In this document: piece after piece, positions 38,020-62,575 of the stretch | Position numbering within the stretch: position 1 is the stretch's first letter | Layout of the letters: each line of letters starts with the position of its first letter | From: a virus | Direction: 5' to 3' (one strand) | IMG/VR virus record: IMGVR_UViG_3300044675_005482 | Coordinates: 49,998 to 113,997 of that record | DNA length: 64,000 nucleotides | Translations under genes and position numbers: made by a program | The notes under the pieces: model-generated | Seen by the model: the letters and a program-made list of their open reading frames with translations, nothing else | The model's database searches: none | Told to the model about the DNA's origin: nothing

Positions 38020-38253
38020 GTGCTTAATCTCACCGAAAAGGGTGTTGAGGTATTTATCAAAAAATACAAAAGCGACAAGCAAGAGTCTTTCTGGGATAAC
38101 TACGACCTAATTATTTGGAATAAAAATAATAGTGGTTTTACAAACATCAAAGGACTTTTCAGAAACAATTCATGGGGCCTAGCAGATAAAATATCTGTTA
38201 GTGATCAAGGAGTCTGGAAACTGTCAAAAAAGTATGTCAAATATTTTAAATGA
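38020..38253 (+). CDS. Hypothetical protein
   Basis: ORF downstream of TTGACA-17-TATAAT. Confidence 0.65.
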   Translation: MLNLTEKGVEVFIKKYKSDKQESFWDNYDLIIWNKNNSGFTNIKGLFRNNSWGLADKISVSDQGVWKLSKKYVKYFK

Positions 38254-38545
38254 ACTTGGTATAGATAGAGACGACTTTCAATGGTTCCATCTTGCGCTAT
38301 GTCGTGGGATGGACACCAATTTGTTCTATGACAAGTACGAAGCAGATGTAAATATAGCAAAAAATATAGACGAGGCCTGTCTTGGGTGCCCCGTTATTAA
38401 AACATGCTACGAGTTTGGTACTGAAAACAACGAGCACGGAATCTGGGGTGGAGTGTACTTAAACTCTGGATCAACAGATAAAGCCAGAAACTCTCATAAA
38501 ACAAAAGAGGTCTGGAAGAGACTAAAGGCAAAGCATGGAAAATAA
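38234..38545 (+). CDS. whiB: WhiB-family Fe-S transcription factor
   Basis: ALCRGMDTNLFY...CLGCPVIKTC...HGIWGG. Confidence 0.92.
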   Translation: MSNILNELGIDRDDFQWFHLALCRGMDTNLFYDKYEADVNIAKNIDEACLGCPVIKTCYEFGTENNEHGIWGGVYLNSGSTDKARNSHKTKEVWKRLKAKHGK

Positions 38546-49632: not shown

Positions 49633-50004
49633 GTGGCCACTATGAAGAATCTAAATCAGGTATTTAAGCCTTATAAGGCTCAATTTGATAGATGTCCTAG
49701 ACATATTAAGATCCTAGCCATATTGTGCGTTATGTACCTATCTGTCCCAATTGACCCATTTGATATATTATTCCCATGGATGGCATTTACAGATGATCTA
49801 TTCATAGCAGGTATCCTTTTGAAGATTCTGCACAAACACGGCGGGCTACCAGAAGAAGACAAGACTTCCCCTATAGACCTATTAAGAGATATATTCAAGA
49901 GAGTAGATAATAAACAAGATAGTACATCCCTTGCAGTACATTTGTTTAAAGATAATGTATGTAGCCATTGTGGATTAATTGATCACAACAAGACCAAGAA
50001 TTAG
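49633..50004 (+). CDS. DUF1232/YkvA-like membrane protein
   Basis: YLSVPIDPFDILFPWMAFTDDL. Confidence 0.7.
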   Translation: MATMKNLNQVFKPYKAQFDRCPRHIKILAILCVMYLSVPIDPFDILFPWMAFTDDLFIAGILLKILHKHGGLPEEDKTSPIDLLRDIFKRVDNKQDSTSLAVHLFKDNVCSHCGLIDHNKTKN

Positions 50005-50485
50005 CTTTAAAATTAAAGCAATATGGTCTTAACTCCTCATACTACCCGCCCTTTTACATAGCTTATATAGCCCTTAGAAGGCTTATTTGAGCCATATTTG
50101 TATCATCCTACCAACTTAAATTACTATTAATTCCCTTGTGAATACTACCGATATATATGTATTTAGATATACATGTAATTGAGCGATTCCCCATCTTAAA
50201 CCATAATGCTCCATTTTGCTCCACATGTAGCCCATGTGCCAGCATATTCCAGGGATTTTGTCAATAGCCTCGTAAATGGCATATTTGGCCCACTTTGTCA
50301 ATAGTTTTTATGATCTAATTTGGCCATAATTTATGCCAGATTTGTCATACATTTTGTACATATTTGTCGACATTTATAATGTATAATTAATTATTTAGAC
50401 ATATTATGTACACATTTTCTAGGATTTCAGGGAGATTTTATAAGCTCTCGTAAACGGGAAATTTGGCCCTCAATTTTGCACACAA

Positions 50486-50518
50486 AAAATCCACAGGCTG
50501 TGGATAACCTGTGGATAA
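50486..50518. promoter_or_regulatory. DnaA-box cluster 1
   Basis: TGTGGATAA at 50499 and 50510; degenerate AAATCCACA at 50486. Confidence 0.65.
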
Positions 50519-50573
50519 TTTGGGCTAGATATGTTTATCTATCTTGCCAGACATTCTTCTCTCATATATGTCT

Positions 50574-50939
50574 TTATTGGAATGGATCTTTATCCTCTAT
50601 ATAACCAAAGCCTTGTCGCTTTGGTTCTGTTTTCTTTACCACCGCTTTTGGTTCCTGCGGAAGTTTTAGATTTTTCCAGTCATACTTCTTAGTTAGTTTA
50701 TCTACTACAATGTCTAACTGTTTTGCTAGAAATAGACCTTCGCTTGTTGTTCCGTTGTTCCAGTCCGCCTCGTGCTTTCGTGCTTCCTTCTCAATAATCC
50801 ACACAACCAACTCCATAACTCTGTCAATGGTGTAATGAGGTTGGTCTGCTAAGTATCGGGCTACTGAAGCAGGATTGAAGTAATGGTCTTCGATTGCATT
50901 TGCTATCGCAACTGCAACTTTGCTTTCTTTGGTATTCAT
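50574..50939 (-). CDS. Hypothetical early protein
   Basis: ORF with promoter and RBS. Confidence 0.7.
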   Translation of the reverse strand: MNTKESKVAVAIANAIEDHYFNPASVARYLADQPHYTIDRVMELVVWIIEKEARKHEADWNNGTTSEGLFLAKQLDIVVDKLTKKYDWKNLKLPQEPKAVVKKTEPKRQGFGYIEDKDPFQ

Positions 50940-51010
50940 AGTCCGCCTTTCTTGATTAGGATTATAACATAAGGGACTGACATTGTGCCAGTCCCCTAAT
51001 GTATATTAGA

Positions 51011-51160
51011 TTACTTAGCCTTGTTGACTGGAGTCTCTGCGGTAAACTTCATGCCCTTTGATTCCGCCTCCTGGATAGCAACCTTAGCTGCTCCTGAGAA
51101 ACGACCACGAGCTCCGACTGTGATTCCTTGTGACTTTAGATATTCACGCTTTGTTGTCAT
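51011..51160 (-). CDS. Lsr2-like DNA-binding mini-protein (49 aa, not in ORF track)
   Basis: KREYLKSQGITVGARGRFS with RGR hook; GAAAGGGGA RBS. Confidence 0.65.
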   Translation of the reverse strand: MTTKREYLKSQGITVGARGRFSGAAKVAIQEAESKGMKFTAETPVNKAK

Positions 51161-51702
51161 TTGTATCCCCTTTCAAGAGATGTTTTATTTATTATATCAA
51201 CTATTTACGGATTTGTAAATAGCTTTCCGCCTATATTTAATTGTGATCGTAAGAGCCAAATTTGGCCCCTACAAATTTACCTGTTCTACTCGATCTTTAA
51301 TTAATTTACTAATGATGTTGTGGGCCTCGATATTCTCAGTCTCAGATCCACCCCACAAAAGCTGCTGTGCTTTATTTAATTGATCATTGATGTACACATC
51401 ACTCATCTTCATCTTCGTCCTCCTCCTCTTCAAACATCAAGTCTGTCATGATGTCGTTGTTTAACAGCCAGTCACGTATATCTTCGTAGTGTTGCTCTGC
51501 CCCGTACTCCAGAGAGAACCCGTAGCCGTTCTGTACAGCCTCTCCGAGTTTGTCCCACACCTCTTGCTCTGATACCTCAAAGCGAAACTCCTTGTCGTCC
51601 ATTAGGTTTTTAATTGTGGACCATGTCCACAGCCATACCATGGAAAGACCAAGGTCGGTGGTGTCAAGAATCTTTAAACATTCATTTAGTTTATCTTTGT
51701 CA

Positions 51703-51975
51703 TCAGGCTTCATCTCGTTCTCCAATCGCAAATGCCAACTGATATGTAAGTTGATATAGTTCTACTAATGTATCAAGGGCACCCTCACATCTTGTGCGCT
51801 CCATTGAGTCCATTGCTTCTTCTGATTCATCCTCCTGCTCCTGTGCACGGGCTAGGTCCCGTTCAGCAATGAGCATTAGATTCTTTAGTTCTCCATGGAT
51901 GATGTCAAGGCCTGACACTCCAGCATTAACCATGCGTTGCATGTGGGGCGGGAGCCCAATATCTTCTGAGTTCAT
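51703..51975 (-). CDS. Hypothetical early protein
   Basis: ORF with AACGAAAGG RBS. Confidence 0.7.
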   Translation of the reverse strand: MNSEDIGLPPHMQRMVNAGVSGLDIIHGELKNLMLIAERDLARAQEQEDESEEAMDSMERTRCEGALDTLVELYQLTYQLAFAIGERDEA

Positions 51976-52574
51976 TATTCATACCTTTCGTTAGAAGAGT
52001 TCATTATATCAGTAGCCACTGACAATAAATGCCTGGTTGTCTCAATCTCTGCTTGTTTAACTTTATAGAAATGATGACCATTTACATAGTCAATCTTTTC
52101 TAGGTCTTGTTCAAGACTAATTAAATGAAGTTTCATATATTCCATAAACTTAGAAGACTTAGACATCTACTACCTCATATCTCTGAGTCAATCTGTCGAA
52201 ATACCTGGCAGCTTGGCAGGTACAACTGCATACACCAGGTATGTCTGTCGCTTGCCAGTAATGTTTATGCATGATCGAAATACCCCTCTGCCCACAGCCC
52301 TTGAAGGAAATCGTGGGCGGATACAAGATAGTTATGAATAGCAGGATTCTCATCAGCATCTATTAACAAGTCTGCTTGATAAACCCCATATGTCATATCT
52401 GCTAAATCTCTCTGTGTATAACCTAACATTATGCAACCTCGTATTCATGTAAGTAGTTTAATACATTGTGAATTATGCAATCACAATCTCCGCCCATATT
52501 ATCCATAAAATCTAAGTGGGAATAATTATCCTCATAGATAGTATTGATTACTTTATCAAACATTTCTATTGTTG

Positions 52575-53348
52575 TCATACATCCGCCTTTTCTCTAGATT
52601 CCAATAATACCATGTGGGTCTGACATTTTGCCATAGCCTCTTCATCTTGCCAAGAGCCTTGGTTACATTCTGAGCAGAATTCACCACAGTCATCTTCACA
52701 GTAATCTAATGTATCAAAAGATTGGCAAGCATAACAGCGATTCTCATATGAAAGAATTTCCTTTACCTCACCACGGACAATCTCATACTCTCCGCCCCAG
52801 CCTGTTTCTTCCTCATACTCTAATGTAAGCAGGCAGTTCGGAACAAGATTACTTAGTTTAGTTAAGATAGTTACAGCAGGTGACCATGCAGTCTCATAAC
52901 GATAGATAACCCAGTTGTCATCACCTTCTGATTTATATTCAACTAATTCTGTATTTGAATACTCCTCATCATCACGAACGGCTACATCCCACTTAGTTCC
53001 CCAGTTGGTGTTATTCCAAGAATACCAATCCTTTTGAGTCTTAGCATGTTCAATAGATTTAGCAAACCAATTAGGGTCGTCCATTGAATAATCACCACGA
53101 GAAGGCTGGCATGCATATTCCTCATCAGTAATGCCGTCATCCTTATATGAATGAATGTTGTGAAAAGCGAATACAGGATTATTATATTCAACTAATTTAA
53201 TTTTGGTGGGGAATCCAGAAGAACTAATATCACCCATACCATAAGTCTCTTGTGCTAATGTAAATGGCTTATTCAATCTATCTTTAATCATATCTACCTC
53301 AGACTTAGGTCCTTGGATAGTTAATGTGTTATAACACCAATTTGGCAT
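52575..53348 (-). CDS. YubB/DUF1281 ferredoxin-like domain protein
   Basis: MPNWCYN, WYSWNNTNWGTKWD, ETAWSP. Confidence 0.8.
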   Translation of the reverse strand: MPNWCYNTLTIQGPKSEVDMIKDRLNKPFTLAQETYGMGDISSSGFPTKIKLVEYNNPVFAFHNIHSYKDDGITDEEYACQPSRGDYSMDDPNWFAKSIEHAKTQKDWYSWNNTNWGTKWDVAVRDDEEYSNTELVEYKSEGDDNWVIYRYETAWSPAVTILTKLSNLVPNCLLTLEYEEETGWGGEYEIVRGEVKEILSYENRCYACQSFDTLDYCEDDCGEFCSECNQGSWQDEEAMAKCQTHMVLLESREKADV

Positions 53349-53526
53349 TTTATATCCTTTCGTTGATATGGCTTAATTATACAATGGACCACTGACAATT
53401 GGAATACTTTATAAGTGTGTTTCACACCACATTTTTCAAGCTATGTGGTCAAGATCACCAAATTTCCAGGAAATATATATTGACTTCGTAAACAAACTAT
53501 TATACCCTCAGCTTTTGGGGGCCAAA

Positions 53527-53670
53527 CAAAAATCCCCGCTTGCACGGGGATTAATGAAATGTACGGCTGCTAGGATCTACCAACGAAAGTAAAAAGTCCT
53601 GCTTTACTTAGCGACTTGACGAATGCCTTATCTAGCCGCACCGAACATGTATAAGAAGGCACCAGGCCTA
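53527..53670 (-). ncRNA. Candidate structured small RNA with its own promoter and terminator
   Basis: TGGTATAAT ending at 53676; stems GTGCCTT/AAGGCAT and GTGCGGCT/AGCCGTAC; terminator AATCCCCG..CGGGGATTTTT. Confidence 0.45.
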
Positions 53671-53676
53671 CTTAAA

Positions 53677-54042
53677 TTATACCATAACTAGTCGACTGTA
53701 TTTATTTACAAATTCATCGATAGTTAAACTGAAGACAACTGTCTCAAGGTCCTCTTCCATCAATGTAAATGTTTTGGCAGCCCAGTCAATTACTGGTACC
53801 TTGTGCTCATTGTCCGCCAATTGATTTACGCTAATGCCCCAGCCTGTTTCTGATTCCCATTCTTCGCCAACCATGCGACTAATAGCAATACGTGTAGCAT
53901 ATGACTCATCATTCCAACGAGGACGTGCTGCCTCTACAGCATTGGCCAAGTTCTCTAACATGTTATAGCCTGCCCAGTGCCCGTACAGGAATACTGTATC
54001 TCCCTTACGGTCCTTAAATCCAAAGTTTGCTCTGTCTCCCAT
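53677..54042 (-). CDS. Conserved phage hypothetical protein
   Basis: MGDRA...LYGHWAG. Confidence 0.75.
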   Translation of the reverse strand: MGDRANFGFKDRKGDTVFLYGHWAGYNMLENLANAVEAARPRWNDESYATRIAISRMVGEEWESETGWGISVNQLADNEHKVPVIDWAAKTFTLMEEDLETVVFSLTIDEFVNKYSRLVMV

Positions 54043-54399
54043 TTTATTCCGCCGTTTCTAATGTAGGTACTTCTTCTTCGATTTTGTCTAATTCTATCAT
54101 CTCGTATGAGACCTTGGCAAGTCCATCCTCGAACTTGTTTTTGTGGTGACCGCAGAAGAACAGCTCGCCTTCTACTAGCTTAATTAACCATTTAGCTTGA
54201 GCTGTACTACATGCATCACATGCAATCCATCTAGTTAGATCTTCAGAGGTCATAGTCAACGGTTCCAAATTCTATGGTGTCAGCAATGTCATCATAAACC
54301 TGTCCGTCATCAGATGACTCCGCCCATAGTCTAATGTTGGCAATGATAACTTCACGGGCAAATTTTACCCCGTCTTCAAAACCGTCTTGGTAATCCATT

Positions 54400-54618
54400 T
54401 TATCTCCCTGTATATCCTGTTGGCTCGTAGTCTGATGTATAACTCTCTACTAGGTTATACTTATCACGAATGCGTGATACTTTCTCAATGCTACCAGTTC
54501 CCACATTGAATGTCAATGGTCCAATCGCTTGTGGGTCCAGGCCAATCATCTCCGCATCCCAGGTAGCCCTCGCAAAGGCTACCTGGTTTGGAGCGGTTAA
54601 TTCAAAATACATTAGCAC
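54400..54618 (-). CDS. Hypothetical early protein
   Basis: Coupled ORF. Confidence 0.6.
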   Translation of the reverse strand: MLMYFELTAPNQVAFARATWDAEMIGLDPQAIGPLTFNVGTGSIEKVSRIRDKYNLVESYTSDYEPTGYTGR

Positions 54619-55262
54619 TCCCTAACGTGACATACTTCTTGTTCTGTCACTTCGATATTGCCATTGTGTGAATCGGCATAGATAGCATCTGCAATCTCAT
54701 CTTCGATGTCATAGTCCTCAAGCAAATCAAGTTCCATGGTTCCGCTAACCTCGATAGTTGCAGTCCATTCAACGCTACGTGTTAGAGAGATATCTAAAGC
54801 CTCAGCAATTGCACGTAATGTGTCTTGGTCTTGTGAATCAGCATATGCCTCAGCAATAATATCTTTAACTGTTTTAACTTTGTCTTCAAAGATGCCAACA
54901 CGCTTTTGTGCTTGACGTGCATTGTGTAGGTCCCACTCAATTGATGTGACCTTGTCAGTTGCATACTCTGCATCTGAGTATCCACGAATAACTTTATAGG
55001 TTACTAATAGATTTGGGTTATATGTATCAGGAACAGTTACTGCAGTTGTTGTTTCTTCCATGGTTTCCTCTTTCGTTTGTGTAGGTTGTATTGTAGCATG
55101 CTCCACTGACACCAATGTAGTATCTCGACCACACGGGCATGTGAGCTTAGTCACACCAGATGGGAATCCAAATCCATCCGATGATGTTAGTTCAATTAGA
55201 GAATCACATTCATCTGGGTCACATACAAATGTGTACTTACTTGATATGAGTTCGTTGGTCAT
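54612..55262 (-). CDS. Early protein, likely two in-frame isoforms (starts 55262 and 55061)
   Basis: Near-leaderless start after promoter 55270; internal promoter 55090 plus RBS. Confidence 0.65.
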   Translation of the reverse strand: MTNELISSKYTFVCDPDECDSLIELTSSDGFGFPSGVTKLTCPCGRDTTLVSVEHATIQPTQTKEETMEETTTAVTVPDTYNPNLLVTYKVIRGYSDAEYATDKVTSIEWDLHNARQAQKRVGIFEDKVKTVKDIIAEAYADSQDQDTLRAIAEALDISLTRSVEWTATIEVSGTMELDLLEDYDIEDEIADAIYADSHNGNIEVTEQEVCHVREC

Positions 55263-55364
55263 GACGAGAATTATACACCTGGCCACTGACATTTACAAGC
55301 TTTTTCAGGGATTTTATTTGTGATTCGTAACACACAAAATGTGCCTTCACATCTGGGGGCTTTG

Positions 55365-55438
55365 CGATCCATAACGGACTTGAACCGTCGACCTCTACCG
55401 TGACAGGGTAGCGCTCTAACCAACTGAGCTAATGGACC
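55365..55438 (-). tRNA. tRNA-Asp(GTC)
   Basis: GGTCCAT/ATGGATC acceptor, CTACC-CTGTCAC-GGTAG, TTCAAGT T-loop. Confidence 0.93.
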
Positions 55439-55445
55439 TAATGGT

Positions 55446-55473
55446 GAGCAGTTTTAAATCTTGCTCAGGATTT
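55446..55473 (-). ncRNA. Small pseudoknot motif, copy 2
   Basis: AAATC-CTGAGCAA-GATTT-AAAACTGCTC. Confidence 0.6.
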
Positions 55474-55480
55474 TTTTTAT

Positions 55481-56485
55481 TTAGAAATTCATAACCAATT
55501 TCTTGATTTTGTTTTTCTCAGCAGTTAGAACGGGGTCAAATCCAGATGCACCCGCCATAAGAGTTTCACCATTGCCACGACCAGAACGATAGTAATCAAG
55601 GCGCTCAGTAAGTGCATTAAACGCACCCCATTTTGTTCCCTTGATATTAGCGTTAGTTGGTGAGTTATGATACAAATCATCAAGCAGGACAACTTTGTTT
55701 TCCCACTTCTTCAATGCACCCTTAGTGTCTTTATCAGGCTTTGGATAAATTGTCTGAATCAACTTTGAGAATTCAGCATCGGTGATTGCTTGAGTGTAAA
55801 GCGCCTTTGCTTCAACTTCAAACTCATCAAAATAACCAAGAGCAAGACCAAGAGTCTCACGAGCAACTTGAATGCGACCTTCAACAGATTGCGTGTGGCG
55901 AATCTTGAAAGATTGCTTTGCATTACGCATTGCAAGATTCAAAGTATTTTGGCAAACAACACGAACAGGAGTAACCGCTGCTTGAACAGCAACAGAACCA
56001 TCGTGTGATGTCCATACGATTAGATATAACTTTGTCTCATCATTGGCGCCTTGTGGGTCAAGAACCATTGTGCGAGGAATATCTACAGTGCCGAATACAA
56101 CTTTGCCCTTCTTAAGAGAACCAGCAGATTCCCAACGGCAATCAGCATTCGCATCGTGAATTGCATCTGCAAACTGAAATAATTCTTCATTCTGCACAGG
56201 CTTGTAACGCTTTCCAACAGTTGCAAGAACATCAGTTCCGCCATTGAATGGATTTGTGCGAACAACTAGAGATGAATCTGAAACATCATTCCAAGATTCG
56301 TCAATGTGATTTGTGATAGGTGATAAGCGAACATTCCAATTTGCTAACTTTGCTTCTTCAAGCATTGTTGCAGTTGTAACTTCCTCATCTTTTGTGAAGA
56401 TGCGATTTGCTAGATTATGCCAAGCAGGAGCACCACGGAGAGCGAAAGCAACTTCGCCATTTTCGACTTCGAGATTGTGAGCCAT
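55481..56485 (-). CDS. DUF932 family (phage/plasmid-like) protein
   Basis: MAHNLE, PAWHNL, YKPVQN, ESAGSL, SHDGS, TPVRVVCQNTL, WGAFNALTE. Confidence 0.88.
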   Translation of the reverse strand: MAHNLEVENGEVAFALRGAPAWHNLANRIFTKDEEVTTATMLEEAKLANWNVRLSPITNHIDESWNDVSDSSLVVRTNPFNGGTDVLATVGKRYKPVQNEELFQFADAIHDANADCRWESAGSLKKGKVVFGTVDIPRTMVLDPQGANDETKLYLIVWTSHDGSVAVQAAVTPVRVVCQNTLNLAMRNAKQSFKIRHTQSVEGRIQVARETLGLALGYFDEFEVEAKALYTQAITDAEFSKLIQTIYPKPDKDTKGALKKWENKVVLLDDLYHNSPTNANIKGTKWGAFNALTERLDYYRSGRGNGETLMAGASGFDPVLTAEKNKIKKLVMNF

Positions 56486-56574
56486 TTTTTACCTTTCGTT
56501 TAGTTGATTTGGCAATTATAACAGGTGGCACTGACATTGTCTAGATTAGTTAGTCATTTGTCCGAATTGATCCG

Positions 56575-56590
56575 TGTGAGTAATCTCACA
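56575..56590. promoter_or_regulatory. CRP/GlxR-type palindrome (one of a family)
   Basis: TGTGA-GTAATC-TCACA; further perfect copies at 58047, 58640, 60050, 61099. Confidence 0.7.
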
Positions 56591-56603
56591 AATTTTCAGG
56601 GGC

Positions 56604-56633
56604 TGTGGATAACCGTCTTAAACCTGTGGATAA
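56604..56633. promoter_or_regulatory. DnaA-box cluster 2
   Basis: TGTGGATAA at 56604 and 56625. Confidence 0.65.
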
Positions 56634-56701
56634 GTCCGCACATATGCGGGCGTCTCAGATAGTGGGAAGATGAGGCGGGATTTTAGATCCCGCCCCAAGC
56701 T

Positions 56702-56962
56702 TTAAAGTATTCCGATTTCCTGAGCAGTTAGTGGCTTATGTGTGTTCATTTTATTTACAATACTTTCATCAAGAAACATTGCAGTTGTTTTCTTTTTCTT
56801 TACGCTATCAAACACATAAGCATTTACTCTGCCGCTAAACTTACGCAGGTTGCTAAATACTAATTCCGTTAGGTATTCTTTATCTACACCTTGCTCAGAA
56901 TAAATTGTTACATCGTTCATCTTGTTTGCGTCATAGATTTCAATTCTAAAACGATTTTTCAT
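56702..56962 (-). CDS. Hypothetical early protein
   Basis: ORF with RBS and upstream TATAAT. Confidence 0.7.
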   Translation of the reverse strand: MKNRFRIEIYDANKMNDVTIYSEQGVDKEYLTELVFSNLRKFSGRVNAYVFDSVKKKKTTAMFLDESIVNKMNTHKPLTAQEIGIL

Positions 56963-57031
56963 TTTGTTCCTTTGTTAGTAGGGATAAGAATTATAACATT
57001 GGGGGCTAGAGTTTGTCTAGCCCCCTAAAAG

Positions 57032-57214
57032 TTATGCGCCGATTTTTACCATAGCCCAGCGCAGACCATTTTCTGTATTCAATCCTAGTTTAGTTAGATT
57101 AGGACGGATAGAAACGATTTCTGCGATAGTGCCAGTAATTCCTGATTTACCAGTTGTAAAGACATCGCCCTTACGATAGAAGCGACCCTTAGTAGTATCT
57201 AGAATTGGTGACAT
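57032..57214 (-). CDS. Small beta-barrel-like protein, paralog of 57807-57980
   Basis: YRKGDVFTTGKSGITGTIAEI...TENGLRW. Confidence 0.7.
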   Translation of the reverse strand: MSPILDTTKGRFYRKGDVFTTGKSGITGTIAEIVSIRPNLTKLGLNTENGLRWAMVKIGA

Positions 57215-57241
57215 TGTATTACCTTTCGTTAGTGGGTTGGT

Positions 57242-57269
57242 GAGCAGTTTTACAACTTGCTCAGGTTGT
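57242..57269 (-). ncRNA. Small pseudoknot motif, copy 3
   Basis: ACAAC-CTGAGCAA-GTTGT-AAAACTGCTC. Confidence 0.6.
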
Positions 57270-57318
57270 CCCACTCTATTTATTTAGACACGCATTTCTG
57301 TGGGGCGTGTTGTATTAG

Positions 57319-57735
57319 TTAGAGATACTTAGCAATCTGCTTCATTGTAGAAGCATTTACTGTTTCCTCATCTGTCATCTTTAGAATTGTGAGAGCATTT
57401 GTGATGTCCTCTTTCATTTCCTTATAGGTATGAGTGTGAATAACCTCAAAATCCTTTTCAGGTTCAGCAGGGAACTCTGAGCCATTTACTGTGATGTCAA
57501 AATCAACATTAAGTGTCTTGTTCCAAGAACGATAGTTTGTGCGAAGGTTCTCAGCCTTTGAGAAATTGTCAATAGCCCACTTGCCAATTTCCTTGCGCCA
57601 CTTTTCTTGCGCCTTCTGATACTTTGCTTCGTTAGCACCTTGTGTAGCATAGTCTTTTTCCAACTGTGCTAGACGACCTTCTAGTGCCTTGATTACCTTT
57701 GGTGTTGCCACCTTTACTGTTATTGCTCTACTCAT
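57319..57735 (-). CDS. Hypothetical early protein
   Basis: ORF with promoter and AACGAAAGG RBS. Confidence 0.75.
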   Translation of the reverse strand: MSRAITVKVATPKVIKALEGRLAQLEKDYATQGANEAKYQKAQEKWRKEIGKWAIDNFSKAENLRTNYRSWNKTLNVDFDITVNGSEFPAEPEKDFEVIHTHTYKEMKEDITNALTILKMTDEETVNASTMKQIAKYL

Positions 57736-57806
57736 TGTGTTTCCTTTCGTTGGTTGGTTGTTTGAGTATTATAGCAGGGGGGTCTGACAACCCCCCTGCC
57801 ATTTCA

Positions 57807-57980
57807 TTACGCTAGGCTATCGGCAAGAACTGTTGTCCAGCGTTCGCCATTTTGTGTTTCTAAGCGAACACGCACCGAGCCAGATGCGTTAGGAATAATC
57901 TCTTTAATTACTCCAGTTTCTTTTGACTTCAGAGTGGTGAATAAATCTCCAACCTGATAGACTTTGTTATCTAGTGTCAT
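57807..57980 (-). CDS. Small beta-barrel-like protein (57 aa, not in ORF track)
   Basis: YQVGDLFTTLKSKETGVIKEI...TQNGERW. Confidence 0.7.
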   Translation of the reverse strand: MTLDNKVYQVGDLFTTLKSKETGVIKEIIPNASGSVRVRLETQNGERWTTVLADSLA

Positions 57981-58057
57981 TTTGCTTCCTTTCTGTTTAG
58001 GGTCTGATTATAGCAGAGGCTACCGACATTTAGTAGCCCCTGCCTGTGTGAGTTATC

Positions 58058-58324
58058 TCACAATTCTTCAGGTAGCCAAGCACCCAAGTGGTGTTGTTCG
58101 ATGATAGCCCAAGCGGGTGCGTGAGTCTGACCCTTATACGATACGCCTTCAGGCATTTCGATAGCACGATCAAAATCTTCTTCGTAGTATGCGTCAATTG
58201 CTTCGATGCAAGGTTCGACCATAGAAAGTGGAACGGGTGGGTAATGATTACCCTGCAAGTGATAGCCAATAGCAACTTCTAAATCTAATTCTTGCGATAG
58301 GTCTAGTGCTGTGTTGTATCCCAT
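58058..58324 (-). CDS. Conserved phage hypothetical protein
   Basis: HLQGNHYPPVP...IIEQHHL. Confidence 0.7.
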   Translation of the reverse strand: MGYNTALDLSQELDLEVAIGYHLQGNHYPPVPLSMVEPCIEAIDAYYEEDFDRAIEMPEGVSYKGQTHAPAWAIIEQHHLGAWLPEEL

Positions 58325-58326
58325 TA

Positions 58327-58551
58327 TTAGTTACCTTCCTTAATTGTTAATTCTGCCCAAGAGTTACCTTCATTTGCAACTGTAAGAGTGTTAGACATAG
58401 CAAGAGCGTGAATTGTTGCACCCTTACACATCTTTTCAATTTCAGATTGTGGTAGGTTGATTAGCGCAGGCAATAACTTTGCGTCAATTTTATCCAAGTC
58501 AATAATTGCCTCGAATACAACTGTGTGTGGAACTTTCATTAGATTAGACAT
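58327..58551 (-). CDS. Hypothetical early protein
   Basis: ORF with promoter and RBS. Confidence 0.65.
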   Translation of the reverse strand: MSNLMKVPHTVVFEAIIDLDKIDAKLLPALINLPQSEIEKMCKGATIHALAMSNTLTVANEGNSWAELTIKEGN

Positions 58552-58972
58552 TTGTTACCTTTCGTTGTTGGAATAAGAGTATTTTAGCATAGGCCACTGA
58601 CATTTAATAATCGAGCTTCGGCGTGTTTCTAATTTATTTTGTGATAAACCTCACAATTTTCAGGGTGTGTCGTAACTTGACGTAAACGGCTTTTTGCCCC
58701 CACACCTTTGCGGGCTTCTTTCAGTTTGTCAAGTTAATTTTGCCAAATGTCGGGATCAACATCCTGCAAATATTCTTTTGCAAGCTTTTGTTGTTCGTCT
58801 GATCCAGTTACAGTGGCCATTAATGCATTTAAATAGCCAAGGTCCATTTTATAAAAAGGATTTTCGTTACTCATCATGTTGCCCCTTATGTTTAATTTTA
58901 CGTGTGTACTTTTTTTTATTGCGAACAGGTTGCGCCGCATTGCTACGGCGCAATTCCTGAATGCGTTTTACT

Positions 58973-59164
58973 TTATTTTGAACTGAAGTTAGGAACATTG
59001 TAATTACTCGCTTCGTGAAATCTTTTTACATCAAATCGCTCATTGTCTTTCGCAAACATTTCTGCGAAGTCGTGAACAGTTTTAGAAAAAACAGCGGGGT
59101 GAACTTTATTGCTGAGATACTTTAGAATTTCAGCGGTTGCGATGTAATCTTTTCGTGTCATCAT
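58973..59164 (-). CDS. Hypothetical early protein
   Basis: MTRKDY...DNERFD..RF. Confidence 0.7.
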   Translation of the reverse strand: MMTRKDYIATAEILKYLSNKVHPAVFSKTVHDFAEMFAKDNERFDVKRFHEASNYNVPNFSSK

Positions 59165-59740
59165 TTTTGTGTAACCTTTCCATTTCGGTAGAAGTTCTTA
59201 GTGTGCATTTTACCAGAAGGCTCTGACAAATTATAGGTTGCGTATTCTTTAGCATCGCCAAAGTCTGAGCATTTATCGAATTCGTGAACGGCGGTTAGAG
59301 CATCTGAAAAATCCCACGATGCAACTCTTTCACCATCATAAGCAATAGTTAGTTTATACATTAAATGTTCCAATCTTCTAGGGCGCATTCACACGCTTCT
59401 ACATCATAATTATTTTCATCGCCCCAGAATAAAAATCCAGCGCCACCGCATTCATCACAACTCGCTGCGATAATTTCTAAGTATTGTTTTACTTTAGCCA
59501 TTCAGGTTTTCCCTTTCGTTTGTTTTGGTAATTGTAGCAGATAGGACTGACAAGGCTTCCGCCTTGCTTGCTTCACGTTGTTCGATAACGTGCTTCTTGA
59601 ATTCTTCTAAGTTCATTCGAACGCCCCCTCTTCTAGTAATCCTAATTCAATGTTAAACAATTCATCGGGAGTGGCTTCGGATAAATCTACCCAGCCAGCA
59701 CCCTCGTCATCCATTCTAAAAATTTCAATGTATCCCATTA

Positions 59741-59947
59741 TTATTCACCAACCTTTACTGCGATTGTTGCGAATTTATTTCGCAGACCGCCTGTGCGAAT
59801 TTCGATTAAATAGGCTTCAGCGTTGTCGCCATAATAAATTTCAGGGCGAGGTTCTGCTGAAACAATTTCGCCTGAAAAGTGGCGAGAGTTTGAGCGATAG
59901 TTTTTCCCTACAAGTAGGCTTTCGATTGTGTATAGTTTGGTAGCCAT
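59741..59947 (-). CDS. Hypothetical early protein
   Basis: ORF with promoter and RBS. Confidence 0.65.
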   Translation of the reverse strand: MATKLYTIESLLVGKNYRSNSRHFSGEIVSAEPRPEIYYGDNAEAYLIEIRTGGLRNKFATIAVKVGE

Positions 59948-60206
59948 TGGCAGACCTTCTTTCGTTTTGTTAATAATGGTATTTTACCAGAACGGACTGA
60001 CATTTTCCAATTCTGCAAGGGTTTGTCTCATTATTTGGAGCGTGGGCAATGTGATAAGCATCACACGTAAATGTCCGATTTGTCTGTCAAATCGACACGC
60101 CGCAAATTTTCAGGGAATTTATAACTCTTTCATAACGACACGCCCGACGCCGCACCACTGTGGGCGGGCCAGCTTGATTTTGTCAAGCCGACACGCCGTT
60201 ATTTAT

Positions 60207-60404
60207 TTATTCATTTTCTAATTCTGCTAAATAATCTTCGTGCTCTACTAATCCAATCGCAAACGCTACAGGATCGCAACACTCTAAAATTTCGGCAGGT
60301 GTGAAAGTAGAGTAACCGATTTTTACAGTAGGGTAAATATCGTTTAGCAAATCTATAAAGCTTTCTTTTATTTCTAAATCTTTTTCAAATTGTGTTTTTT
60401 CCAT
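60207..60404 (-). CDS. Hypothetical early protein
   Basis: ORF. Confidence 0.65.
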   Translation of the reverse strand: MEKTQFEKDLEIKESFIDLLNDIYPTVKIGYSTFTPAEILECCDPVAFAIGLVEHEDYLAELENE

Positions 60405-60655
60405 TTTAGTTTAATCCGTTTTCTCTTAGGTCTTTTATTACTAGGCGCAACATTAGCAGGGCGGGAATACCGATACCTAATTGCACAAGGGTGGTTAGTA
60501 TGCGTGTAGTAGTCATTACTTATTCTTCTTTCTCTTGATTACTTTATAAAGTGTAACACCTACCACCGACAAGATAATAAACGCCCACGATTGGGAGATA
60601 TATAGAAAGTCCCCTAGGTCAATCATTAAGCCATATTCATTTAGTTCTATAGTCA

Positions 60656-60844
60656 TTACTTATCTCCAAACATATTAAAGACCTCATCTAATTGGTCATC
60701 GGTTAGGTGGTCAATTTCAATAGCCTTAGCAAATCCGAAAATATCTTCTTCTTCTGCCATTAGTTTTTCATACATTTCTTCTTCTGCTAGGTGTGCGTAT
60801 TGGTCTTGCACATCTGCTTGAATTGTATCCCATTTGCTCATCAT
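60656..60844 (-). CDS. Hypothetical acidic early protein
   Basis: ORF. Confidence 0.6.
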   Translation of the reverse strand: MMSKWDTIQADVQDQYAHLAEEEMYEKLMAEEEDIFGFAKAIEIDHLTDDQLDEVFNMFGDK

Positions 60845-62085
60845 ATTACTTACCTACCTTTATCTCTTGAACATTAGCGGAAAACTTTTGTGATTTAGCG
60901 AGGTCGCTAGTATTTAATTCTTTAATTAGGTTATCTATCTCCTTAGTGTTAGTAGCAACATTACCAATAGATAGTAGGCGAGAGCCTTGCCATAGTGAGT
61001 ATGTGATAGTCATTTACTGTTCTTCTTTCGTTAGTAGTTATAGTAGGAATTGTAGCGTATAGCGGGGACAAATAGGGGGATATAGCGGGGGTGTGTCGTG
61101 TGAGTTACCTCACATTGACTAGGGCGTGTGTAGCGTAGTTACCGCCACACATTACGCATAGAGTCCAAGCGGTTACTCTACCGCAACCGCTAGAGCAAGC
61201 CACATAGTGGGCGGGTGTGTGGTAGTCGTTACGACTTTCCCATATTCTATTAGTCATTAGTTAGACTCCTTATCTAAACAGTTGATACATTGGCAACCCT
61301 TAGAGGATAGCAAGGCTTTTAGTATCGCCTTTCGTGTATAGGTATCTAGTCCATATGAGGACTTGACTCCACCATTGTGAAAGTCGTGCACGATTGTGCT
61401 ATATAGTGTTTCTGTAAGTTGAGTCATTATCTGACTCCTTTCTTTTAGTTAGTATCTCTAACTCCTTATACATATAACTATACAGGTGGGGTCTGACAAA
61501 TTGCAACCCCAAAAAGGAATAAATCGGACATTTTAAAAAATAACTATGTGTTTTACATCACATTTAGGGGTCTTATGGGCGCACTATCGGACAAAACGGA
61601 CATTTTTTATAGTGTGTATCATACAAATTAAAAATATATTAACATTTTAGAAAATATGAAAAAAGTATTGACTTACGAAAATTTCAAATGTTATACTTAG
61701 AAAGGTTTCGGGGGGTTACACTAAGGAACTCAATACACCAAGTAGCTCTTGGGATTTTGATCCAGACTCTCCTCTATCTTTCCAAAAAGATTTTTTAAAT
61801 TTGGGGGGTAGGGGGGGTTTGCTAAAAAATCTAATTCCCAAGTAATCAATATACTAAATATAGAATATATTATATATATAAGCAATAGATATCTAAAAAA
61901 AATATTTTATTAACATTTAGATATATCTAATATTGCAGTTGACTAGAATATATAGTACAATAAGATTATGAAATGCAGTTTCTGTGAAAATGAGAAGTAC
62001 GTCCAACGATTAAATTCGAGGGGGATACTAGAAAATTTTTGCATTGACTGCATTTCTAATATAAACCGAATACGCTAATCCTTAA

Positions 62086-62160
62086 GGGGATATAGCTTAA
62101 TCTGGTTAAAGCATTTGTCTTATATACAAACGAGTTTGGGTTCAAATCCCAATATCCCTA
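62086..62160 (+). tRNA. tRNA-Ile(TAT)
   Basis: GGGGATA/TATCCCT acceptor, TTTGT-CTTATAT-ACAAA, TTGGG-TTCAAAT-CCCAA. Confidence 0.85.
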
Positions 62161-62290
62161 CTATAAAGCAGTTGACTAGGATAATATGAAGAAATTAAAA
62201 CTTTATACGAACTACTTTGCGTGGTTCTGGATGATTGCATGGATAATTTATCTTATTAGATTGTGATTAAACGTGTTATATAATTAACAC

Positions 62291-62575
62291 ATGGAGCAAA
62301 CCAAATCTTCTGCAAGAAAGACTAAAGAATATTTGGCACGGTACTTAAAAGAAATTAAAGAAAAGAATCCATGCATGGACTGTAAAGTTTGGTATCCGTA
62401 TTATGTGATGGACTTTGATCATGTTAGAGGGCGGAAGCACAAGAATGTTGCAGAACTCATCGATACTCTATCAAAGAAGAAAATAGATGAAGAAATAGCA
62501 AAGTGTGAGATTGTTTGTTCTAATTGTCATAGAATTCGTACACATGACAGATTAATGAATAAGAAAGCTAGTTGA
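62291..62575 (+). CDS. HNH endonuclease-like protein
   Basis: CMDC..DFDH...CEIVCSNCHRIRT. Confidence 0.8.
   Translation: MEQTKSSARKTKEYLARYLKEIKEKNPCMDCKVWYPYYVMDFDHVRGRKHKNVAELIDTLSKKKIDEEIAKCEIVCSNCHRIRTHDRLMNKKAS

Follow-up and report, generated by a model that had tools for sequence, protein, structure and literature searches.

A rigid, one-directional DNA element specific to a phage lineage recurs between the small early genes of an uncultured actinobacterial phage

The middle promoters of T4, with their MotA box, and the middle and late promoters of SPO1 are phage promoter classes read by a reprogrammed host RNA polymerase. In these classes the phage factor has been identified, and there is either a retained sigma-70 -10 or a sigma factor of the phage's own. 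They are frequently found in tandem with host-type early promoters of the same genes and also serve replication origins (T4 oriF and oriG). Polarity of another kind is found in Tus-Ter and RTP-Ter, asymmetric composite sites whose effect is set by the direction of approach, although we know of no Ter-type polar barrier in phages of the kind studied here. The PeSL (promoter-early stem-loop) cassettes of T4-type phages, in which a host-type early promoter is joined to a stem-loop, are a further comparison for repeated regulatory modules flanking the small genes of a hypervariable early region. In actinobacteria, PafBC-dependent promoters (tGTCgg-N10-tAnnnT) are bipartite, lack a -35 and are served by an adapted holoenzyme (PMC8635444). 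Finally, the terminal repeat of T5 holds eight DnaA boxes, arranged in pairs inside conserved repeats and proposed to act as an injection stop signal (Davison 2020, bioRxiv 10.1101/866236), and in T5-like phages nicks are confined to one of the two strands (PMC10644984).

The window analysed here is a stretch of 64,000 nucleotides (positions 49,998 to 113,997 of IMG/VR record IMGVR_UViG_3300044675_005482) from an uncultured actinobacterial phage. A sequence-only reading had described five copies of an element of about 58 bp, together with two partial copies with a 16-nt spacer (50247 and 50425), and all seven are present. Its first two boxes, TTYCAGGR-N15-CDTAA, match the plus strand exactly at 53464, 55303, 56594, 58658 and 60108; with one mismatch allowed there are six matches against 1.08 expected, a number reached in 0 of 100 shuffles. 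That description stood as a pattern but overlooked two things. The genes of the early block lie on the minus strand, and thus the natural reading is the reverse complement, T(G/A)nGGG-N13-TTACGa-N10/11-AAAAn-CCCTGRAA-TTT, with TTACGA as box 1 and CCCTGRAA as box 2. It also missed the CCC/GGG box at a fixed 13-nt offset: the distal CA-N4-TG-N-GGGC is the 3' half of a palindrome, CCCnCA-N4-TGnGGG, whose GGG lies exactly 13 nt from TTACG, a rigid offset. The copies, with the variable stretches beside and between the boxes called slots, are as follows.

60108..60165, minus strand: full three-box copy with a TTATG variant of box 1 and CGACACGCC words in its slots
58658..58715, minus strand: full three-box copy, TGTGGG-N13-TTACG-N15-CCCTGAAA, followed by a TGTGA-N6-TCACA palindrome and then a TGTCAG-N10-TAAAAT promoter
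56594..56651, minus strand: full copy of the TTAAG variant, carrying perfect DnaA boxes at 56604-56612 and 56625-56633 in its slots, upstream of a conserved 334-aa gene (PHROG phrog_1221)
55303..55360, minus strand: full copy abutting the 3' end of tRNA-Asp, its TTACGA centred in a TGTG..CACA palindrome; a PafBC-type promoter box begins about 13 nt past CCCTGAAA
53464..53522, minus strand: copy with variant box TCCTGGAA and a 5-nt palindrome loop, directly after the terminator of a small promoter-to-terminator unit
51224..51271, minus strand: degenerate eighth copy, GGGGCCAAATTTGG..CTTACGA-N16-GGCGGAAA, upstream of a 49-aa Lsr2-like gene; its counterpart in relative L048 has the last box intact (CCCTGAAA)
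50489..50518, minus strand: three clustered DnaA boxes, two of them perfect (TTATCCACA) and the third inverted (TGTGGAT), with a T-run, directly upstream of the terminal array
50425..50472, minus strand: terminal-array subfamily copy, GAGGGCCAAATTT..TTTACGA-N16-CCCTGAAA, lacking the 5' palindrome arm and a downstream gene, with an AT-rich tract after it
50247..50294, minus strand: the other copy of the terminal array, GTGGGCCAAAT..TTTACGA-N16-CCCTGGAA, its slot 2 holding TTGACA

The copies of the terminal array are irregularly spaced, about 50-180 bp apart, and this one subfamily of the element is without the 5' palindrome arm.

Across 80 related IMG/VR contigs and the window, where loci carry 4-7 copies each, the gene strand holds all 381 occurrences of the full motif and the opposite strand none, and every one falls in an intergenic spacer, in agreement with the single orientation first reported. 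The spacing is likewise kept in related phages, which answers a refuting condition set by the sequence-only reading: at the 80 IMG/VR loci, 188 of 248 cases have 15 or 16 nt between TTACG and CCCTGAAA. The gap from TTACG to CCCTGRAA takes two values one base apart (15 nt in 154 instances, 16 nt in 150), and the same one-base play is seen at a single orthologous site and in Streptomyces phages. Counted between hexamers, TTTACG is followed after 17 or 18 bp by CTGRAA, with identical spacing in the Streptomyces phages Wakanda and Samisti12. Box 2 reads C-T-G-R-A-A in all 111 non-redundant copies and is followed by a T-rich stretch. The constant parts of the whole element come to only about 20 scattered bases. 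The slots, as had been noticed, are unrelated between copies and host other sites: DnaA boxes at 56.6 kb, GACACGCC words at 60.1 kb and TGTGATTCGTAACACA at 55.3 kb. They are also swappable. DnaA boxes occupy the stretch immediately before box 1 and the gap between box 1 and box 2, flanking TTACGA at about 12-13 nt from each other, and at one orthologous site they may stand in either orientation or be absent; the slot-2 box flips, and slot contents are exchanged. A TGTGA-N6-TCACA palindrome begins 3-4 nt past box 2. Every between-gene copy lies upstream of a TGTCRG-N10-TAnnnT promoter, which confirms the proposed link with early promoters, but this PafBC-type pattern (1192 occurrences on the gene strand of the loci) is a separate unit 10-130 nt downstream. 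The element itself holds neither a TGTCRG nor a TAnnnT box and was rejected as a PafBC-dependent promoter on this ground. In spacers with a PafBC-type promoter alone, GC stem-loops surround the promoter box. None of the 381 instances is immediately followed by a ribosome-binding site; there is either a further promoter in between or no gene downstream.

A new finding is a two-box core, TTACGA-N16/17-CWGRAW (equally TTACG-N17/18-CWGRAW), that the window shares with cultured Stanwilliamsviridae phages of Streptomyces, which have genomes collinear with its own; Streptomyces phages hold 2-7 copies per genome. The window's clade has in addition T(G/A)nGGG as a third box, placed exactly 13 bp upstream. 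The boxes are kept from lake phages to Streptomyces phages at about 45-60% protein identity, an argument for a sequence-specific reader. In the window's genome, Samisti12, Wakanda and BillNye, all four collinear, motif and DnaE are on opposite strands, and in all relatives checked the motif has a single genome-wide polarity independent of local gene direction; the transcribed strand of the element differs between clades. In the 127-kb genome of Wakanda, about seven copies are spread over 55 kb, antisense to the annotated genes. Five of six copies start no further than about 10 nt from where the plus-strand gene or tRNA before them ends, one of them just inside the gene, and the sixth starts 36 nt past the gene end; two Wakanda genes start 12-13 nt behind a copy, with no room for a promoter of their own. 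In Samisti12, whose physical genome ends were determined experimentally (PMC5764925), the core motif is found only 192-674 bp from the left end of the 10.7-kb terminal repeat, and at the right junction a group of three DnaA boxes is found 50-95 bp beyond the repeat. The location in a terminal repeat is thus established for the core motif in Samisti12, whereas for the window's genome we infer it from such relatives. In BE-cluster phages the distance from the end to the motif is about 220 bp. A module combining three DnaA boxes with motif copies is kept in the window, Wakanda and Samisti12, and in these three lineages tandem copies stand beside a DnaA-box cluster and an AT-rich tract. In the window and Samisti12, the tandem copies sit exactly where a plus-strand operon meets the minus-strand block.

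The element acts in cis as a DNA signal, is peculiar to this phage lineage and has the two boxes TTACGA and CWGRAW as its conserved core. It is phage-specific because matches in bacterial genomes are at chance level: 13 in about 185,000 species genomes, compared with more than 120 stretches in viral contigs. Similarly, 401 Actinomycetota genomes gave 9 matches against 4 in the control, and 46 Mb of large genomes gave 3, compared with about 7 copies in the 127 kb of Wakanda. That it acts as DNA rather than RNA follows from the swappable DnaA boxes, which may take either orientation, from the lack of covariation in the palindrome beyond that in shuffles (41 hairpins observed, 42.7 in shuffles), and from Rfam 15, which over 49800-62400 at E up to 1 returned two tRNAs and one chance-level match, and no family for the element. 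G.T and A.C mismatches are about equally frequent in the palindrome, and the G.U-containing hairpin of the sequence-only reading, whose 5' arm one subfamily lacks, is not supported by these comparisons. An intrinsic terminator was also rejected: the palindrome is followed by TTATCC, TCGGGC or similar and by no U-run, and a terminator scan did not pick it up. A role as a terminator, processing or antitermination site in early transcripts, to which the position shortly past stop codons and the GC palindrome of one subfamily might point, is thus largely refuted and extremely improbable, the more so as the slot-2 DnaA box flips and the transcribed strand changes between clades.

What reads these boxes? 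A protein reading fixed boxes is still the best kind of explanation for a DNA element of fixed geometry, and we tentatively favour, while granting that it may well be wrong, a phage-specific promoter-like launch site for leftward transcription with operators for host factors in its slots. That RNA polymerase reads the site, which way transcription runs from it and all that would follow functionally are what we infer. A host RNA polymerase, redirected by a putative phage factor, would bind the two boxes and initiate leftward transcription, and host regulators bound in the slots (candidates are DnaA, a CRP-type protein and a reader of CGACACGCC) would compete with or aid docking. Copies before PafBC-type early promoters would form a second promoter class for the same genes, and the array beside the triple DnaA boxes and AT-rich tract may activate or prime a replication origin; phage promoters act at the T4 and T7 origins and provide a model for such an array. 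Like the T4 and SPO1 classes, the element has short boxes at promoter-like spacing, in one orientation and between genes. Box 1 is -35-like (TTTACG against TTGACA/G), a second hexamer lies within the 16-18 bp of sigma-70/sigma-A promoters, and a gap of two values one base apart is a tolerance typical of this family. The Streptomyces -10 is TAGGAT, and box 2 of Wakanda and Samisti12 (CAGGAT or CAGGAA) is one base away, with a T-rich stretch after it. Strict polarity, operator-like slots and an origin-like setting in three lineages also argue for the promoter-like site, as does its being neither RNA nor a host motif. On the other hand, unlike the T4 and SPO1 classes, it has no evident factor or -10-like element. 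In the window's clade box 2 is CTGRAA and not the sigma-A -10 hexamer TAnnnT, lacking the A (position 2, -11) and the T (position 6, -7) that sigma-A needs, and among the 111 non-redundant copies TAnnnT is enriched at no fixed offset from the element. Sigma region 2 (Sigma70_r2) was not found in the phage genome nor an RNA polymerase among the large proteins scanned, and the sole region-4-like match is a 49-aa HTH protein. Moreover, no instance directly precedes a ribosome-binding site, the Wakanda copies are antisense and mostly near the end of a preceding plus-strand gene or tRNA, and the left-repeat copies of Samisti12 would fire off the physical end of the genome.

The Wakanda positions near gene ends, a usual place for stop signals, speak for a polar protein-DNA barrier or insulator, in which a putative bound protein of phage or host would stop rightward RNA polymerases or forks and let leftward ones pass. 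Such a barrier would block machines arriving from long plus-strand operons, in keeping with the tandem copies at the convergence in the window and Samisti12, and the polarity of the motif follows the genome and not local genes, as in the four collinear phages and as in Ter sites, which keep one orientation per chromosome arm independently of gene direction. Ter sites, however, are few and have fixed internal spacing and a known binding protein, and one-base play is unusual for a rigid barrier complex. Five further copies inside the leftward-transcribed block would be left unexplained, and a tight stop would silence the two Wakanda genes 12-13 nt behind a copy. We consider this barrier somewhat unlikely, though not far behind the promoter-like site, and give the same weight to a group of non-transcriptional terminal-repeat or origin signals taken as a whole, in which the machinery of replication, packaging (small terminase) or DNA entry would dock at the element, T5-type strand-specific nick sites and priming signals included. 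The candidate DNA-entry or packaging signal of the sequence-only reading in fact gains some ground, because the Samisti12 motif is confined to the first 700 bp of the terminal repeat and relatives show one genome-wide polarity; the near-end BE-cluster copies, the conserved DnaA module and the DnaB-type helicase, DnaG-type primase and putative small terminase, all encoded by the phage and conserved across the family, point the same way. T5 is a close parallel, sharing a large siphovirus-type genome, a long terminal repeat (here putative) of small first-expressed genes, conserved non-coding repeats of unproven function inside and at the edge of that block, and host DnaA boxes paired at fixed places within them. 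The repeats of T5 are long, both inverted and direct, and 3 nt separate the DnaA boxes of a pair. The present element has an oriented frame of three boxes over 58 bp, its DnaA boxes stand astride TTACGA at about 12-13 nt from each other, it belongs to a phage of an actinobacterial host, copies also lie between genes, and there is no sequence similarity to the T5 repeats. Origin or packaging signals usually occupy one locus, but copies here extend over 10 kb, and in Wakanda over 55 kb. A DnaA cluster and an AT-rich tract, as in an iteron-type origin, are present, yet the copies are irregular, no initiator gene was found among the conserved genes, and 50005-61960 would be a terminal repeat by analogy with relatives.

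Two further possibilities carry much less weight. A rightward promoter, with TTYCAGGG as -35 and CGTAA as -10, would be sense in Wakanda and an antisense early shut-off in the window; it would point the same way as the Wakanda genes and almost every gene outside the early block, and its box spacing is promoter-like. Nevertheless it has no AAC-type -35, no TAnnnT and no cognate sigma factor, and with the motif in no host regulon the divergent ECF-type promoter proposed earlier is not supported either. In addition, the motif hugs the upstream and not the downstream gene in long Wakanda spacers, a start codon at 12-13 nt would leave a leader that fits neither a leaderless nor a Shine-Dalgarno start, and the motif is absent before all other plus-strand operons of the window's genome. 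We therefore regard the rightward promoter as improbable, and as slightly more so a PeSL-like recombination scaffold or mobile cassette boundary, whose constant frame would serve mainly to shuffle small genes and regulatory slots. Varying copy number among close relatives, slot exchange at orthologous sites and the GC stem-loops of certain spacers speak for such a scaffold, but so few scattered constant bases are too little for homologous exchange, and box conservation points to a reader. Furthermore, PeSL fits the spacers that have only a PafBC-type promoter, whereas the three-box element holds no host-type promoter.

In summary, a rigid, one-directional signal recurs between the small early genes of an uncultured actinobacterial phage, and, with its two-box core present in cultured phages, the function of the element is now testable at the bench.

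The virus record is a single contig of 113,997 bp, of which the window forms the right-hand 64 kb. Plus-strand genes extend to 50,004, and a minus-strand block of some 35 small genes runs from about 61.5 kb to 50.57 kb. Because the genes of this block lie on the minus strand, the element is read on that strand below. The sequence-only reading had described five evenly built copies in the block, and all five are recovered as exact matches to TTYCAGGR-N15-CDTAA at 53464, 55303, 56594, 58658 and 60108. With one mismatch permitted, the pattern gives 6 matches, a number reached in no shuffle, against 1.08 expected, and the partial copies with a 16-nt spacer at 50247 and 50425 are present as well. 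Across the whole genome, the octamer TTTCAGGG occurs seven times on the plus strand, six of these at 50.4-60.1 kb, and never on the minus strand. One more copy can be added:

51224-51271: eighth copy of the element, degenerate

The copies other than the intergenic ones form an array in the 570-bp non-coding region that closes the block, where, in minus-strand reading, three DnaA boxes with a T-run are followed by a copy, an AT-rich tract and a second copy. Judging from relatives, 50005-61960 is probably a terminal repeat of the window genome.

A logo built from 111 copies of relatives sharing at most 70% identity reads T(G/A)nGGG-N13-TTAcGa-N10/11-aAAAn-CCCTGRAA-(W)TTt, that is, an upstream box followed by box 1 (TTACGA) and box 2 (CCCTGRAA), separated by variable spacers, or slots. 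The distance from GGG to TTACG is rigid at 13 nt; between TTACG and CCCTGRAA, 154 instances have 15 nt and 150 have 16 nt. Most intergenic copies have a palindrome, CCCnCA-N4-TGnGGG, to which T(G/A)nGGG contributes the 3' arm, whereas in the 50.2-50.5 kb array the 5' arm is missing and the box is GTGGGC(C/A)AATTT. No -10 element was found at a constant distance downstream of CCCTGRAA.

The 334-aa protein encoded just downstream of the 56.6-kb copy (55481-56485) has 305 relatives in IMG/VR. The best 80 of these 305 loci (90-95% protein identity) and the window together contain 381 full motifs on the gene strand and none on the other, against a chance expectation of ~0.7 per strand by our own estimate from base composition, with 4-7 copies per locus. 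The spacing, whose loss in related phages the sequence-only reading had named as evidence against the element, is conserved in these relatives, and the element therefore withstands that test. The three-part pattern is found in at least 120 stretches of viral contigs and as 13 scattered matches in ~185,000 bacterial and archaeal species genomes. The two-box pattern has 9 matches in 401 Actinomycetota genomes against 4 for a control, all in coding sequence, and the Streptomyces-type variant has 3 in five large actinobacterial genomes of 8-10 Mb (46 Mb). With matches so few and scattered across the bacterial genome scans, a host regulon motif was rejected.

The slots hold DNA-binding words in fixed register, namely DnaA boxes, CGACACGCC words, TGTG..CACA halves around TTACGA, and TTGACA. 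The perfect DnaA box TTATCCACA occurs 5 times in the window against 0.83 expected. Slot content was compared at one orthologous site, upstream of the 334-aa gene, in 80 relatives: 45 carry a face-to-face pair of DnaA boxes and 6 a tandem pair, 7 have a perfect box in slot 1 alone and 2 in neither slot, while 20 lack a strict copy of the element within 300 nt. Other words were also observed in and around the slots. Palindromes of the CRP/GlxR type (TGTGA-N6-TCACA) occur between 53416 and 61120; in the copies at 56.6 and 58.7 kb they begin 3-4 nt past CCCTGRAA, and more lie at 58.05, 60.05 and 61.1 kb. The words CGACACGCC and GGCGTGTCG recur at 60050-60200, where they occupy slots and flanking sequence of the 60.1-kb copy, and also at 58600, 57290-57310 and 61090. 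They contain GACAC, which we take to be the WhiA motif, and a palindrome related to them, TGTCGGGCCCGGACA, is seen in Samisti12 spacers. A second family-wide word, often present in pairs and sometimes as GGACAT on the opposite strand, is followed by a T-rich stretch:

Window 61540-61620 and 60030-60095; Wakanda 118,950-119,030 and 125,030-125,090; Samisti12 early spacers: (A)ATGTCCG word

The element is never directly before a ribosome-binding site. Instead, TGTC(A/G)G-N10-TAnnnT stands 10-130 nt downstream of every intergenic copy, and these promoters match the published PafBC consensus, tGTCgg-N10-tAnnnT (PMC8635444). Over the 80 best IMG/VR loci and the window they number 1192 on the gene strand versus 7 on the opposite one. 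Those of the window are:

50961-61498, minus strand: fifteen PafBC-type promoters TGTC(A/G)G-N10-TAnnnT, mostly with a TG extension

Where spacers are short, a GC-rich inverted repeat surrounds the promoter box, which occupies its loop; one example is GCAGGGGGGT-TGTCAGA-CCCCCCTGC at 57774-57799. In addition, a unit of ~140 nt (53527-53698, minus strand) carries a TGGTATAAT promoter of its own together with a U-tailed terminator of canonical form (53531-53552); it contains no convincing ORF and matches no Rfam family.

The element is a signal at the level of DNA, not RNA. Its palindrome had been proposed in the sequence-only reading as a distal hairpin, but covariation is absent: five or more Watson-Crick pairs form in 41 copies, compared with 42.7 when the 3' arms are reassigned between copies. 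Variation is confined to the middle position, which is paired in 25 of the 41, mismatches are G.T about as often as A.C, no U-tract follows the palindrome, and an Rfam scan returned no family matching the element. Moreover, the flip of DnaA boxes at the orthologous site keeps a protein site and not an RNA fold. RNA structure, sought by best-hairpin search and by covariation against shuffles, was thus rejected for want of signal, and an RNA element is very improbable. Inverted repeats flanking TTACGA are enriched (mean stem 3.19 versus 2.56 +/- 0.12 in shuffles), but in 16 of the 111 copies only, where symmetric DnaA or TGTG/CACA sites explain them, so display of TTACGA in a hairpin loop was also rejected.

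A nucleotide search for close cultured relatives found none. The plus-strand core, comprising ribonucleotide reductase, virion genes, replication and recombination genes and terminase, is collinear with those of the Streptomyces phages Wakanda (NC_070785.1) and Samisti12 (NC_042012.1) of the family Stanwilliamsviridae, at ~30-65% protein identity, whereas the right arm of small genes is not common to these genomes and its strand differs between lineages. The phage encodes a WhiB-like protein, DnaE, DnaB, a DnaG-type primase, a RecA-like protein and further replication and recombination proteins; the WhiB-like protein and the collinearity with Streptomyces phages establish an actinobacterium as host.

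In Wakanda, about seven copies of CCT-TTACGAA-N8/9-AAAATCTCAGGA(A/T)-TTTT, all on the minus strand, are spread over 65.6-118.9 kb. There the motif runs antisense to the neighbouring genes, which are encoded on the plus strand. Relative to the gene or tRNA that precedes them, four copies start 3-10 nt past its end and another 36 nt past it, while one starts 6 nt ahead of a stop; a start codon follows just 12-13 nt beyond two copies. Beside one copy, in 1.4 kb of non-coding sequence, lies a triple DnaA-box cluster. The ends of Samisti12, with a terminal repeat of 10.7 kb, are experimentally defined (PMC5764925). There, TTTACGA-N16/17-C(A/T)GGA(A/T) is found on the minus strand at 192-220, 264-292 and 645-674, within 900 bp of non-coding sequence at the repeat's left edge, and elsewhere only as the right-repeat copies; a triple DnaA-box cluster (122,951-122,995) lies ~50-95 bp outside the right repeat. 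BE-cluster phages have the motif ~220 bp from their left end. It is missing from Rhodococcus phages, which are closer judged by one protein. The gap from TTACG to CWGRAW, the family-wide form of box 2, is 17 or 18 nt in Wakanda and Samisti12, as in the window, and in all four genomes compared (these two, BillNye and the window's) the motif is on the minus strand relative to a collinear core with DnaE on plus. Its polarity thus tracks the genome and not local genes. Box sequence, identical spacing, strand and co-location with DnaA clusters suggest that the motifs of the IMG/VR clade and of the Streptomyces phages are homologous. The present analysis adds the core that the family has in common, the polarity of that core relative to the genome, and where it lies in phages whose ends have been mapped.

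The element is not explained by any known protein or class of promoter. A sigma region 2 (Sigma70_r2) was not found in the phage genome, the sole region-4-like match is a 49-aa HTH, and the large proteins with a family match are all structural or of nucleotide metabolism, with no RNA polymerase among them; a phage sigma factor or polymerase as the reader was therefore rejected. The 266-aa protein adjoining DnaB, another candidate reader, proved to be a metallophosphoesterase, and other conserved small proteins lack annotation and none stood out. Two small genes have counterparts in Wakanda:

38201-38545, plus strand: WhiB-like protein (Pfam Whib, E 1.7e-11)
51011-51160, minus strand: 49-aa ORF, 53% identity over 38 residues to part of the Wakanda Lsr2-like gene (113,728-114,279)

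The WhiB-like protein is kept in Wakanda (52% identity) and Samisti12 (47%) and is a candidate modifier of host sigma-A, with no link to the element; the 49-aa ORF on its own has no Pfam match.

Any account has to explain that the core is bipartite and its spacing can vary by one base, that its polarity is strict across the genome, that copies are dispersed and always lie between genes, that the element is specific to phages, that its slots carry host-factor sites, and that it resides beside DnaA boxes and AT-rich DNA, at the boundary of the terminal repeat or close to it. We rank first, tentatively, a leftward promoter-like site, on which host polymerase with a putative phage adaptor would dock for leftward transcription. 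In its favour, the spacing is as tolerant as at sigma-type promoters, box 1 resembles a -35 element, box 2 is near consensus in the Streptomyces phages, and the slots are placed as operators would be; phage promoters are also known to serve at replication origins. It is weakened by the absence of a -10-type element in the window's clade and by the fact that the element drives no gene directly and is antisense to genes in Wakanda. The literature on phiC31 early promoters and BE-cluster transcriptomes yielded nothing usable. A polar barrier against rightward transcription or replication would fit Wakanda and the convergent boundary well, but leaves the internal copies unaccounted for and seems unlikely. 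Rather unlikely, too, is a signal of the terminal repeat or origin that would serve replication, packaging, entry, nicking or priming: it suits Samisti12 and has a parallel in T5 (bioRxiv 10.1101/866236; PMC10644984), but does not fit the wide dispersal of copies. The ECF-type divergent promoter of the sequence-only reading is improbable, and a scaffold for recombination about equally so.

It is possible, if doubtful, that the element represents a phage DNA signal of a new kind, strand-polar and programmable, in which a conserved frame, read by a factor of Stanwilliamsviridae-like phages, would act on a directional DNA process (polymerase launch or block, priming, or staged genome entry) and the slots would be loaded copy by copy for host regulators. 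With slots for DnaA, a CRP-type protein and others, each copy would report a different host state. The core has been traced to Streptomyces phages that are cultured and genetically tractable and whose ends are mapped (Wakanda, Samisti12, BillNye and the BE cluster), which makes its function directly testable. Few non-coding features of these actinobacterial phages, a large group that is abundant in the environment, are conserved as well as the element. Should it prove to be a promoter class, it would indicate that actinobacterial RNA polymerase can be redirected in a way not yet discovered; should it instead be a polar signal for entry, replication or a barrier, with DnaA boxes built in, it would offer a second, independent system for the decades-old T5 question of what purpose the conserved DnaA-box repeats serve in a long terminal repeat.
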